Made by a program: the position numbers and the translations under genes. From Candidatus Aminicenantes bacterium (GTDB lineage Bacteria; Acidobacteriota; Aminicenantia; Aminicenantales; JAFGAV01), in NCBI GenBank assembly GCA_963702835.1, contig OY969762.1, positions 2,423,601-2,487,600 of the forward strand: a stretch of 64,000 bases of DNA, read 5' to 3'. This document shows, in pieces, positions 16,969-19,314 of this stretch. Positions within the stretch are counted from its first letter, which is position 1. The number at the start of each line of letters is the position of its first letter. The notes beneath the pieces are model-generated. The model worked only from the letters and a program-made list of their open reading frames with translations. It did no database searches and was not told the origin of the DNA.

Positions 16969-19314
16969 ATGGTCTCCGAAAAAGCGAATCAGATCGGCAG
17001 CTCCCCTGTGCTGAAGATGTCAGCCAAGGCCAAGGCCATGCAGGCCGAAGGCATCGATGTTGTGGACCTCAGTGTCGGCGAGCCCGACTTTCCCACCCCG
17101 GATAACGTTAAGACGGCGGGCATAAAGGCCATCCAGGAAAATTTTACCAAGTACACGGAGAACGAGGGCATACCGTCCCTGAGGAAAGCCATTGTCGACA
17201 GGCTGCGCCAGGACCACGGGCTGAGCTATACGCCGGCCGAGATCATCGTCTCCGCGGGCGCTAAGAGCTCCCTTTTTCACCTTTTCCAGGCTTTAATCAA
17301 CAAGGGTGAAGAAGTCATTATCCCCGCTCCCTACTGGGTCACCTATCCCCACTCGGTCACCCTGGCCGAGGGCAAGCCGGTCATCGTCCAGACCCGCGAG
17401 GAGGACGGTTTCCTGCTCAGGCCCGAGGCGCTCAAAGCGGCCATCAGCCCGGCCACCAAAGCCGTCATCCTCAATAACCCCTGCAACCCCACGGGCGCGG
17501 CCTACAGCCGCCAGCAGCTGGAGGCCCTGGCCGCCGTCGTCCGCGGCGAGGACCTCTTCGTGGTGGCCGATGAGATTTACGGCAAGCTCATTTACGACGG
17601 CTTTATCTTCACTTCTTTCGCCACTCTGGGCGAGGACATCAAGAAAAAAACAATCCTCATCGACGGTGTGTCGAAGTCCTACGCCATGACCGGCTGGCGG
17701 ATCGGCTACGCCGCCGGCCCGGCGGCCATCATCAGCGCCATGGCCAAGATCCAGAGCCACACCACCTCCAACCCCTGTTCCATTTCCCAGAAGGCCAGCC
17801 TGGAGGCGCTGCGCGGGCCCCAGTACGAAGTGTCGCGGATGGTGACCGAGTTCCAGCGCCGCCGCAACTATGCCTTGATGCGGCTCCAGTCCGTGCCGGG
17901 GCTGTCCTGCTTCAAGCCCCAGGGCGCCTTCTACCTTTTTCCCAACGTCTCCTCCTTCTTCGACAAGGAGTTCCAGGGCATGCGGATACGCAACTCCTAC
18001 GGCCTGGCCTACTATCTGCTCAAGGAGGCCCGGGTGGCCATCGTTCCCGGCGACGCTTTCGCCGCAGACAATTACATCCGCATCTCCTATGCCACCTCCC
18101 TGGAGAACCTGGAGAAGGGGTTGGACCGCATCGTCGCCGCCCTGGCCCGGCTGAAGCCCGCCCAAAAGGCCAAGCGGGCCGCCCTGCAGAACAGCCTGAC
18201 TCGGGTCAAGAAGGCCGTGCCGGTCGAGCCCTCCGTCACCGTTCCCCTCCGCGACGCCCTGGTGGCGGAGATAGAGAGCCGGCTCGGCCCGGCCCAGGTC
18301 TATGAATGGAACGCCAACATCCATGGCGTCATTGTCCAGTTGCGGACCAACGTCCCCCATCTTTACGACTTCTGGATGGAAAACTGGTTCCCGGCCCAAC
18401 TGGAGGGCGGACTGGAACCCCATGGGATGATCTATGCCCTGGACGGCATCCCCGGCCGGGAATCGCGGGCCTACTTCAACTCCGAAACACGGACCGGCGT
18501 CCTGCTCAACACCGACAACTACGGGCCGCTGCGCAGCCTGGCGGTAGGCCTGGTCATGGACACCACCGAGCGGATGCTCCTCAGCCACGGTGTGCGCGGC
18601 ATGGCCGCCGAATGCAACGGCCAGCTGCTGGCCCTCATCGGCCCGCCCGGCACGCGCAAAACAGAACTCTTCTTTGAACTAGTCCAGGACAAGCGCTTCC
18701 GGATCCATTCAGCCGAACAGTTCTTCGTCCGCTTCACGGGGAACGCTCCCCTGGCCGATTGCGTCGAGCGGAAGTTCTTCCTGCCCACCAACACCGTGGA
18801 ATCCTTCCCGGCCCTGGCTCCCTTGTTCGACGCCAGCAAGTGCGAGAACGTGGTCGTCCGCAAAGAGGACTGCCAGGACGCCGAATGCCTGAGGGGAGAG
18901 GACTGCCGACTGGACCGGGGGTCCCTCTACTGCTATAAAGCCTCCAAGGAGGCCCAGGCCCTGCTCGACCCGAACTGGATCGGAGGGCCAGCGGCTCATT
19001 CGAAGCGGGCCGTCCTGCGCTGGATCTTTCTCCTGCGCACCGATCCGGCTTCGCCGGCCGTAGTCGAAATAGACAAGGACGAAGCTTTGCGCTGGCTTGA
19101 ATCCGGGGAGAGCCCGGGTTTGAAGAAGAGCCTCAGCCCGGCCAAAAGCCAGCCCTATTTCAACCCCCACCTGCTGGCCTCCTCGCCGGAGCGGATGGAG
19201 CTGCATAAAAACCTGTGGCGCCGCCTCCTGCAGAGCACCTCGGTCTATCTATTCAACAGCGCCGCTGGAAAAGCCGGCGACATTAAGAAGGTCGTAACCG
19301 GCGCCGCGGATTAG
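16969..19314 (+). CDS. aspartate/aromatic aminotransferase (class I PLP) fused to a C-terminal HprK-like kinase-fold module
   Basis: Residues 1 to about 385 are a complete AspAT (...SKSYAMTGWRIGYAAGP...). They run on without a stop into about 390 aa containing HGVRGMAAECNGQLLALIGPPGTRKTELFFELVQDKRFRIHSAEQFF. This aligns with the HPr kinase C-terminal domain (HGV..G.GvLi.G.SG.GKSE.alELi...LvaDD), with a degenerate Walker A. Confidence 0.8.
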   Translation: MVSEKANQIGSSPVLKMSAKAKAMQAEGIDVVDLSVGEPDFPTPDNVKTAGIKAIQENFTKYTENEGIPSLRKAIVDRLRQDHGLSYTPAEIIVSAGAKSSLFHLFQALINKGEEVIIPAPYWVTYPHSVTLAEGKPVIVQTREEDGFLLRPEALKAAISPATKAVILNNPCNPTGAAYSRQQLEALAAVVRGEDLFVVADEIYGKLIYDGFIFTSFATLGEDIKKKTILIDGVSKSYAMTGWRIGYAAGPAAIISAMAKIQSHTTSNPCSISQKASLEALRGPQYEVSRMVTEFQRRRNYALMRLQSVPGLSCFKPQGAFYLFPNVSSFFDKEFQGMRIRNSYGLAYYLLKEARVAIVPGDAFAADNYIRISYATSLENLEKGLDRIVAALARLKPAQKAKRAALQNSLTRVKKAVPVEPSVTVPLRDALVAEIESRLGPAQVYEWNANIHGVIVQLRTNVPHLYDFWMENWFPAQLEGGLEPHGMIYALDGIPGRESRAYFNSETRTGVLLNTDNYGPLRSLAVGLVMDTTERMLLSHGVRGMAAECNGQLLALIGPPGTRKTELFFELVQDKRFRIHSAEQFFVRFTGNAPLADCVERKFFLPTNTVESFPALAPLFDASKCENVVVRKEDCQDAECLRGEDCRLDRGSLYCYKASKEAQALLDPNWIGGPAAHSKRAVLRWIFLLRTDPASPAVVEIDKDEALRWLESGESPGLKKSLSPAKSQPYFNPHLLASSPERMELHKNLWRRLLQSTSVYLFNSAAGKAGDIKKVVTGAAD

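Follow-up and report, generated by a model that had tools for sequence, protein, structure and literature searches.

Does one gene of Candidatus (Ca.) Aminicenantes really join an aminotransferase to a second, kinase-like module, and if so, what is that module and what could it do for the enzyme that carries it? The question is raised by an open reading frame (ORF) of 781 amino acids (aa) in a stretch of 64,000 nucleotides (nt) of contig OY969762.1 (positions 2,423,601 to 2,487,600), hereafter called the window. An earlier note, made from the letters of this DNA, described the ORF as a class I aminotransferase with a tail resembling the HPr kinase/phosphorylase HprK. We find a real, conserved gene whose first half resembles aspartate aminotransferase (AspAT) and whose second half descends from ATP-dependent phosphoenolpyruvate carboxykinase (PEPCK). 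AspAT interconverts aspartate and oxaloacetate, and ATP-PEPCK (EC 4.1.1.49) converts oxaloacetate and ATP to phosphoenolpyruvate (PEP), ADP and CO2, so that the two enzymes flank oxaloacetate at the junction of amino-acid catabolism, the tricarboxylic acid cycle and gluconeogenesis.

The fusion is a conserved gene

The ORF and its parts are as follows (window positions).
16969..19314, + strand: whole 781-aa ORF, stop included, ATG start; aminotransferase, conserved connector and PEPCK-like module
16969..18138, + strand: class Ib aspartate(/prephenate) aminotransferase domain, aa 1-390 (PF00155, PRK06107, PDB 6f35)
18139..18258, + strand: basic, conserved connector, aa 391-430, which matches the N-terminal segment of the PEPCK-like module instead of being a loose linker
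18259..19311, + strand: truncated ATP-PEPCK-like module, aa 431-781, corresponding to about residues 87-468 of Escherichia coli Pck by way of the sister-family alignment

Could a sequencing or assembly error have deleted a stop codon or joined two genes? We scanned one genome per GTDB species, among which 452 genomes encode a relative, and examined the best 80 loci. Aminotransferase and module share a single uninterrupted ORF of 776-791 aa, aligning to query residues 1 to ~778, in 72/80 of these independent assemblies, including the complete chromosomes OY970122.1, OY969586.1, CP070825.1 and CP070750.1; the other eight are interrupted by a contig end (7) or by Ns (1). In the window ORF there is neither a stop nor a frame change at the junction, and GC content is uniform (0.58-0.65). 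Hence the complete aminotransferase running in frame into about 390 further residues, as the earlier note had it, stands as a single 781-aa ORF with PF00155 at aa 30-388, and its caution about a stop codon lost near the junction is answered. The sole apparent split, which speaks for an artifact, is locus L002 (ERZ25039462 contig_12282, an 804-kb metagenome contig), where the halves are called as two genes. However, one frame runs unbroken through the aminotransferase C-terminus, connector and module of L002, so the apparent split reflects a frameshifted call of the upstream gene and is not real. The conservation of the connector itself among orthologs is a further argument against an artifact, which we consider excluded, with a negligible residual probability; the fusion is a real, conserved gene. 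L002 shares synteny with the window; its aminotransferase part is out of frame with the module (6724-9065, 9647-11087), probably through a sequencing or assembly indel.

The best 80 loci are essentially all from Ca. Aminicenantes, and one of them, in a Ca. Aminicenantales metagenome-assembled genome (MAG), is 99% identical to the window. Outside Aminicenantes the fusion occurs in a MAG of candidate division CSSED10-310 (MFC1850416.1, here P0110) and in MAGs labeled Zixibacteria and Acidobacteriota. Many MAGs with the Aminicenantes-type gene (L005-L083; P0023, P0024) are titled 'uncultured Eubacteriales', 'Clostridiales bacterium' or 'Burkholderiales bacterium', which are probably placeholder or mis-binned labels. 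Public annotation of the fused proteins names the aminotransferase only, MFC1850416.1 being a 'pyridoxal phosphate-dependent aminotransferase' and nothing more, and the pipeline label 'PLP-dependent aminotransferase' (PLP, pyridoxal phosphate) conceals half of the fused protein.

The architecture is built from known folds, and the pairing of an AspAT with a degenerate PEPCK-like module appears to be undescribed, as the earlier note had suspected of the fusion it saw: literature searches aimed at an aminotransferase-PEPCK-like fusion returned no description of one, and nothing on PEPCK in Aminicenantes. Methanosarcina mazei CobD, which we take to be a member of the aminotransferase fold, carries an extension much shorter than this module. 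Titles of 2018 and 2019 cited in PMC9986279 present this PLP enzyme as a bifunctional kinase/decarboxylase and as having metallocenters. Known here by titles, CobD is a conceptual precedent only.

An AspAT-like first half

PF00155 matches aa 30-388 of the window protein over profile positions 2-361 of 361 (E=5.9e-77, 259.7 bits, cut-off 19.7). The best NCBIfam model, aspartate transaminase PRK06107, scores 444.6 bits, under its equivalog cut-off of 617, so the half is AspAT-like with an exact substrate range that is not fixed by the score. Its active-site motifs are the following.
17473-17496, + strand: NNPCNPTG, intact
17563-17580, + strand: VADEIY, intact
17665..17709, + strand: GVSKSYAMTGWRIGY, PLP-lysine motif, aa 233-247, from residue alignment to 6f35
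18073-18093, + strand: YIRISYA, intact

The relatives of this half in the PDB include 6f35 (AspAT B, E=3.4e-105), 1j32 (aspartate aminotransferase, E=1.5e-99), 5wmi (Arabidopsis aspartate/prephenate aminotransferase, E=3.1e-96) and 1bjw (aspartate aminotransferase from Thermus, E=3.8e-94). The class Ib AspATs 6f35, 1bjw and 5wmi are matched at full length by the N-terminal 390 aa with PLP-Lys and substrate motifs intact, and the PLP-Lys motif SKSYAMTGWRIGY, NPCNPTG, ADEIY and RISYA all align identically or conservatively with 6f35. The aminotransferase half thus looks like an intact, working enzyme. In contrast to the window protein, none of the 26 solved AspAT relatives found (370-475 aa) has a C-terminal module, the match ending ~13 residues or less from the C-terminus in each.

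A PEPCK-derived second half

Structure and profile comparisons place the module. A model of the module computed with AlphaFold (AF2) on a 30-homolog alignment has a mean predicted local distance difference test score (pLDDT) of 86.5 and a predicted template modeling score (pTM) of 0.85. In a Foldseek search with it the top 35 PDB matches are all ATP-PEPCK (E ~1e-17 to 6e-15, template modeling (TM) score 0.61-0.72, ~400 columns), and the next are GTP-PEPCK (E ~1e-11 to 1e-10). The fold accordingly has N- and C-terminal domains around a P-loop cleft, as in PEPCK. Among free-standing relatives of the module, P0101 matches the NCBIfam PEPCK(ATP) subfamily model at aa 66-378 (E=2e-7), and the free-standing profile aligns by hhalign with residues 87-468 of E. 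coli Pck (probability 96%, E=2e-9, 340 columns), pairing K212, H232, K254/T255, E311 and R333. From the Foldseek matches and the profile alignments, the module is a truncated paralog of ATP-dependent PEPCK, and HprK a remoter cousin sharing the core. PEPCK identity in place of HprK changes the biology, given that both halves then share the metabolite oxaloacetate.

Direct searches gave nothing of use. The C-terminal half alone, compared with Pfam, NCBIfam and PDB sequences, gave ribosomal protein S16 as its best match (E=0.18-0.65), which is chance. PEPCK models of Pfam and NCBIfam do not match the window module even at E<=10, and relatives score 18-30 bits against them (cut-offs 26.5 and 369). 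The connector string 'TR.KK' was considered as a counterpart of the Pck 'TGRSPKDK' loop with R65 and dropped, since the hhalign match does not extend upstream of Pck residue 87.

An HprK-like protein or peptide kinase/phosphorylase, either of HPr kinase type or of the HprK-related type acting on ribosomally synthesized and post-translationally modified peptides (RiPPs) such as lasso peptides, was what the earlier note had in mind. HprK is indeed the top PDB match when the 30-homolog profile is compared with PDB sequences, but weakly so (E=0.0035-0.006, ~60-75 residues), and the match is confined to the stretch from His/Arg-Gly through the P-loop to the acidic strand, which is also the stretch that can be aligned between HprK and the window module. 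The P-loop core is common to the module, the HprK C-terminal domain (PF07475, TIGR00679) and the RiPP HprK-related kinases including ScmC (TIGR04352, TIGR04355, TIGR04249). On the window protein itself no HprK model of Pfam or NCBIfam matches, and in homologs the hits to PF07475 and to TIGR00679/TIGR04352 are below threshold, Hpr_kinase_C (PF07475) reaching 27.4 bits at best (P0063, cut-off 33.3) and TIGR00679 17-29 bits (cut-off 240). The module has neither a whole-domain structural match to HprK nor GxSGxGKS with an adjacent DD, and no HPr/phosphotransferase-system or CcpA-type context was seen among the neighbors of the fusion gene in the window. We regard such a kinase as very improbable. 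The part of the earlier claim that stands is membership of the PEPCK/HprK P-loop fold superfamily; the nearest family is ATP-PEPCK. The analogy to lasso-peptide and RiPP kinases falls, the ScmC and HprK-related models giving E=0.04-0.1 over the P-loop only, with no such gene context. ScmC and the HprK-related kinases A and B (TIGR04249, TIGR04352, TIGR04355) score 11-20 bits against cut-offs of 125-200, in the P-loop region only. PF27840 'ScmC', a SynChlorMet-cassette HprK-like protein, was likewise rejected, its precomputed matches being weak and P-loop-confined, and radical-SAM/SPASM or PqqD-like cassette genes are absent from the window and from the relatives' loci.

Substitutions in the former active site

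The following sites of the module were assigned by comparison with Pck.
18184-18204, + strand: LxNxxTR motif, aa 406-412, inside the connector
18514..18549, + strand: DNYGPLRSLAVG, counterpart of Pck WYGGEMKKG; Arg522 at the K212/K213 position (hhalign)
18586..18603, + strand: HGVRGM; Arg543 where Pck has its Mn2+ ligand His232 (IHG against M-H232-C in hhalign)
18640..18666, + strand: degenerate P-loop GPPGTRKTE, aa 558-566; Pck GLSGTGKTT; Arg563 for Gly253, Lys564/Thr565 kept
18700..18729, + strand: kinase-2 strand remnant RIHSAEQFFV; Pck RLIGDDEHGW; Ala for D268, Glu (E583) for D269
18763..18789, + strand: VERKFFLPT; ERK at least 95% in the fused clade, ER kept family-wide
18841..18936, + strand: CENV (E311-N-V counterpart) with a Cys-rich insertion where Pck has a short hairpin from ENV to NTR333
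18946..18978, + strand: KEAQALLDPNW; Gln663 where Pck has Arg333 (NSR against NTR333 in hhalign)
19246..19269, + strand: YLFNSAAG, counterpart of Pck YLVNTGW (NTG motif)

Set against the ATP-PEPCK PckA (PF01293; E. coli 1AQ2/1OEN, Trypanosoma cruzi 1II2), the window module has no counterpart of Pck residues 1-86, including the oxaloacetate-binding R65, or of residues ~469-540; it carries R at K212/213, R at H232, R at G253, A at D268, E at D269 and Q at R333; and it carries, after ENV and before the R333 strand, an insertion with four Cys, besides being fused to the aminotransferase. In place of the PEPCK Mn2+ ligands K213/H232/D269 it thus has R522, R543 and E583, and of the oxaloacetate/PEP-binding arginines R65 and R333 the first lies in the absent region and the second is Gln. 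The tail quoted by the earlier note, HGVRGMAAECNGQLLALIGPPGTRKTELFFELVQDKRFRIHSAEQFFV, is found at aa 540-587 of the window protein, and the degenerate P-loop that the note read there, GPPGTRKT, was read correctly: Arg stands where GxxGxGK has its last Gly, and the kinase-1a P-loop G-x-x-G-x-G-K-T is substituted clade-wide. The degeneracy well exceeds that one glycine, with Arg at the K212/213 and H232 positions and no constraint at the R333 position.

Conservation statistics come from 73 full-length orthologs. The position of H232 is R in 73/73 and the RGM of HGVRGM is invariant, as is K564 of the P-loop (73/73), followed by T565 (T68/S5) and preceded by K54/R10/N7/Q2 at G253. At D268 we count N60/S8/A3/T2 and at D269 D63/E10, an assignment of the DD pair that rests on the HprK alignment and a separate hhalign and not on the alignment of the free-standing profile to Pck. 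The R333 position is H36/Y11/Q7/F5/V5 and so free to vary that the role of the substrate-binding Arg has been abandoned and not replaced. In the connector L395, L406 and N408 are invariant and T411 is kept in 70/73; a short strand is modeled at aa 407-409 of the full-length protein. The same N..T motif occurs at the N-termini of the free-standing relatives, which means that the module starts right after the last aminotransferase helix.

Averaged over ortholog pairs, identity reaches 76% in the aminotransferase and 68% in the module. In the module, 113/351 positions are conserved at >=95%, and these fall on the former cleft motifs (R522, RGM, G..GT.K564, ERK, CEN, LDP.W, NPH.L, NS). The module is not decaying; purifying selection maintains its fold, the Lys-Thr pair that binds phosphate and the greater part of the cleft. 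The cysteines C625, C635, C640, C646 and C655 are each conserved in >=95% of the orthologs. Family-wide, the segment from ENV to R333 mostly contains either 0 or 4-5 cysteines, four in the insertion and a fifth (CENV) added by the fused clade, and this all-or-none count is the signature of a metal-binding knuckle. The four-Cys insertion probably binds metal.

Free-standing relatives and the order of substitutions

Where did the module come from? An exhaustive profile search returned 422 family representatives at 50% identity, 91 of them at E<=1e-30. Most stand alone at ~320-460 aa and come from Nitrososphaerota, Thermoplasmatota, Omnitrophota and others, the majority being archaeal. They are nearly always labeled 'hypothetical protein', none has a curated Pfam or NCBIfam assignment, and precomputed matches to PF27840 'ScmC', PF01293 or PF07475 are weak. 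Their motifs are YYGQxK (K212), IHG (H232), APTGTGKS/T (K254, T255), SDDW, ENV (E311), NSR (R333) and NTG; the exceptions to the Pck set are the Mn ligand K213, which pairs with Ser in hhalign, and R65, which is absent. To judge from these motifs, the free-standing members look like catalytically complete mini-PEPCKs.

The family is homologous to the window module over its whole length (24-40% identity), with the same N..T segment and the same truncations relative to Pck, and most free-standing members carry the same Cys insertion as the fused module. The window matches P0101 at E=2.9e-51 over 82% of the query, and P0113 matches the window in tblastn at E=3e-52. The family blocks N..T, LRTN..H..(D)FW..NW, ER.FY, ENV, (N/L)DP, NP(H/Y)LL and N(T/S)G are all present in the window. 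In contrast to the window module, the free-standing proteins have no fused partner and a P-loop of the form APTGTGKS/T (GTGK[ST]), and at the five sites K212, H232, G253, D268 and R333 they read KHGDR where the window reads RRRAQ.

Nine free-standing loci in seven distinct genomic contexts (some are duplicates) lie in unrelated housekeeping surroundings, with no aminotransferase and no conserved neighbor of any kind beside the gene. The search for separate adjacent genes that the earlier note had suggested as a Rosetta-stone check hence comes out negative, the two-gene call in L002 being a gene-call frameshift.

At each of the five sites the free-standing and the aminotransferase-linked proteins differ. 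The filtered free-standing group included fragments of fused genes that start in the aminotransferase tail; these were separated individually for H232, and the free-standing state at the other sites is that of the per-sequence table.
H232: H in 35/35 free-standing; R in 50/54 aminotransferase-linked
K212/213: K in 33 free-standing; R in 53/55 aminotransferase-linked
G253: almost all G in free-standing; K31, R6, G7 in aminotransferase-linked
D268: almost all D in free-standing; N in 34 aminotransferase-linked
R333: almost all R in free-standing; H19, R7, V4, Q4 in aminotransferase-linked

In a neighbor-joining tree all aminotransferase-linked modules form one derived clade nested in the free-standing family, and the five states run from KHGDR through RRGDR and RRGNR to RRKNH in Aminicenantes. 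The loss of catalytic residues is specific to the fused clade. Its basal members P0052, P0058 and P0111 have a P-loop of the canonical form GxGK[ST] and Arg at the R333 position, with DD in P0052 and P0058 and ND in P0111.

The substituted module also occurs outside AspAT fusions. P0125 (899 aa) joins a copy of it, with Arg at the K212 and H232 positions, Asn-Asp at DD and no P-loop whatsoever, to a genuine ATP-PEPCK (PF01293, E=1.9e-48). An identical protein is encoded by 3 contigs that come from no fewer than two sequencing runs (L092 5001-7700, L093 3324-6023), which indicates a real gene. Hence two different enzymes predicted to handle oxaloacetate, AspAT and PEPCK, carry the substituted module. 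The surroundings of P0125 look archaeal.

Two kinds of insertion were seen among free-standing members. P0177 (754 aa) contains an intein (PF14890, aa 216-393, E=1.5e-16) directly after the P-loop APTGTGKS. Inteins typically occupy essential catalytic motifs, and this one is a hint that the free-standing family comprises active, important enzymes. P0146, P0158, P0166, P0170, P0194 and others (510-570 aa) have canonical motifs, a ~70-aa insertion after the DD strand and an extended C-terminus.

Possible functions of the fused protein

The reading that we favor, at a probability of roughly 0.45, is that the module is a ligand-sensing pseudo-PEPCK that would couple the aminotransferase to the PEP-oxaloacetate node. 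A free-standing PEPCK-like protein of ~400 aa appears to have been captured once at the C-terminus of an aminotransferase. After capture, the residues that bind Mn2+ and activate oxaloacetate were lost stepwise, K212/213 and H232 giving way to Arg first, and D268 to Asn (Ala in the window) and G253 to Lys or Arg (Arg in the window) later, with R333 becoming variable (Gln in the window). The P-loop Lys-Thr, the cleft motifs ERK, ENV, LDPxW, NPHLL and NS(G) and the four-Cys insertion were retained. Such a module would no longer perform PEPCK chemistry; as a pseudo-enzyme it may bind an anionic ligand in the old cleft (a nucleotide, phosphate/pyrophosphate or a PEP/oxaloacetate-type compound), gripped by the P-loop Lys-Thr together with the two acquired arginines, and binding may tune or organize the dimer of the aminotransferase in response to the node. 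What the data show is the architecture, its fold and ancestry, its spread among lineages, the sequence of substitutions and the purifying selection; the ligand binding is inferred from conservation alone, and the regulatory role is inferred too. A pseudo-enzyme is favored because practically all fused proteins carry Arg at two of the three positions for metal ligands, because the R333 position is unconstrained and the Gly preceding the P-loop Lys is replaced, and because P0125 has the same module without a P-loop beside a real PEPCK.

Several observations weigh against this reading. The invariant P-loop Lys-Thr, the D269 equivalent (D63/E10) and the conserved cleft fit an active phosphotransferase with other chemistry equally well, and the near-canonical basal fused forms mean that the early fused protein could have been catalytic. 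The full-length AF2 model has a pTM of 0.51 and no confident domain packing, and so offers no physical route for regulation; the alignment is shallow at the aminotransferase N-terminus, which is therefore poorly modeled and permits no conclusion on packing. Nor does the genomic context, with flotillin upstream and SIS and PlsC downstream, offer a metabolic clue.

The main rival, possible but on balance unlikely, is a bifunctional enzyme in which the module would be an active phosphotransferase or carboxykinase with a remodeled, arginine-based site, acting on the oxaloacetate that the aminotransferase makes or on some other 2-oxo acid or amino acid that it uses, so that one polypeptide would channel aspartate via oxaloacetate to PEP. 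Oxaloacetate is common to both parent enzymes, the P-loop Lys (73/73) and Thr (T68/S5) persist, the D269 equivalent stays D or E, and conservation extends to ERK, ENV and NS(G), the equivalent of NTG, under purifying selection on the module that nearly matches that on the aminotransferase. Basal fused forms with a canonical P-loop, R333 and in some cases DD, and free-standing ancestors that look fully catalytic, one with its P-loop intein, are further points in its favor. However, practically every fused protein has Arg at K212/213 and H232, two of the three positions that bind Mn2+ in Pck; this, the unconstrained R333 position, the K/R/N/Q in place of the Gly before the P-loop Lys and P0125 with its P-loop-less copy of the substituted module beside a real PEPCK all speak against catalysis, as do the missing counterpart of Pck 1-86 with R65 and, in the window, Ala at D268 and Glu at D269. 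More unlikely still is that the module is a structural or redox-sensing appendage without a cleft ligand, which would provide an oligomerization or scaffold surface (for example to dock a genuine PEPCK or the co-transcribed flotillin) or sense redox state or metal through its four cysteines. Here the most conserved positions are former active-site motifs, including the invariant P-loop Lys, with no obvious separate surface; the Cys insertion is present in most of the catalytically complete free-standing relatives and hence is not specific to the fused state; and the conserved synteny may only reflect the gene order of the phylum.

More speculatively, and with the odds clearly against it, the module could be one of two novelties: a Mn-independent, arginine-based phosphotransferase or carboxykinase leading from aspartate over oxaloacetate to PEP in one polypeptide, or the first dedicated allosteric pseudo-PEPCK sensor, used modularly on AspAT and, in P0125, on PEPCK. 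In parallel, the free-standing archaeal relatives would then be minimal PEPCK-type enzymes of ~400 aa without the R65 region.

Whether sensor or enzyme, the conserved joining of AspAT to a PEPCK fold is Rosetta-stone evidence that the PEPCK-like family works at the oxaloacetate node, and it has been kept throughout a candidate phylum whose members are abundant fermenters of sediments and the subsurface. The stepwise exchange of the metal-site residues offers a natural example of a domain that turns into a pseudo-enzyme or a new enzyme after fusion. The analysis also exposes a family, the 422 mostly archaeal representatives, that lacks curated annotation and resembles catalytically complete mini-PEPCKs.

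Neighborhood and minor observations

The fusion gene is flanked as follows.
15518-16942: flotillin/Band-7 gene, directly upstream of the fusion gene
16957..16962, + strand: Shine-Dalgarno-like TAAGGT (AAGG core), ~9 nt 5' of the ATG
19333-19902: SIS-domain gene, downstream, convergent
19899-20609: PlsC-type acyltransferase gene, downstream, convergent

The gap between the flotillin gene and the fusion gene is 27 nt and contains no promoter-like site, and a scan of 14900-19500 gave no intrinsic terminators. An epimerase, a GT2 glycosyltransferase and pseudopilins are further neighbors in the window. In the Aminicenantes loci (L004-L083) flotillin/Band-7 recurs in 73/80, SIS in 64/80 and the PlsC-type acyltransferase in 62/80. 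No functional tie of these three to the fusion is evident, and the synteny may merely mirror gene order kept within the phylum. The rest of the 64,000 nt has no second PEPCK or class I aminotransferase.

Further upstream, a Cys/Gly/Asn/Ser-rich ORF of 115 aa lies at 14991-15338 (+), just 3' of a near-consensus sigma-70-like site (14937-14966, 11/12 matches). It has no Pfam match, tblastn against the 80 related Aminicenantes loci found no counterpart, and it could encode a lineage-specific secreted or Cys-rich peptide or be no gene. In L002, an AbiEi/AbiEii toxin-antitoxin pair and then a TrAA12/GSDH-family gene stand between the SIS and acyltransferase genes.

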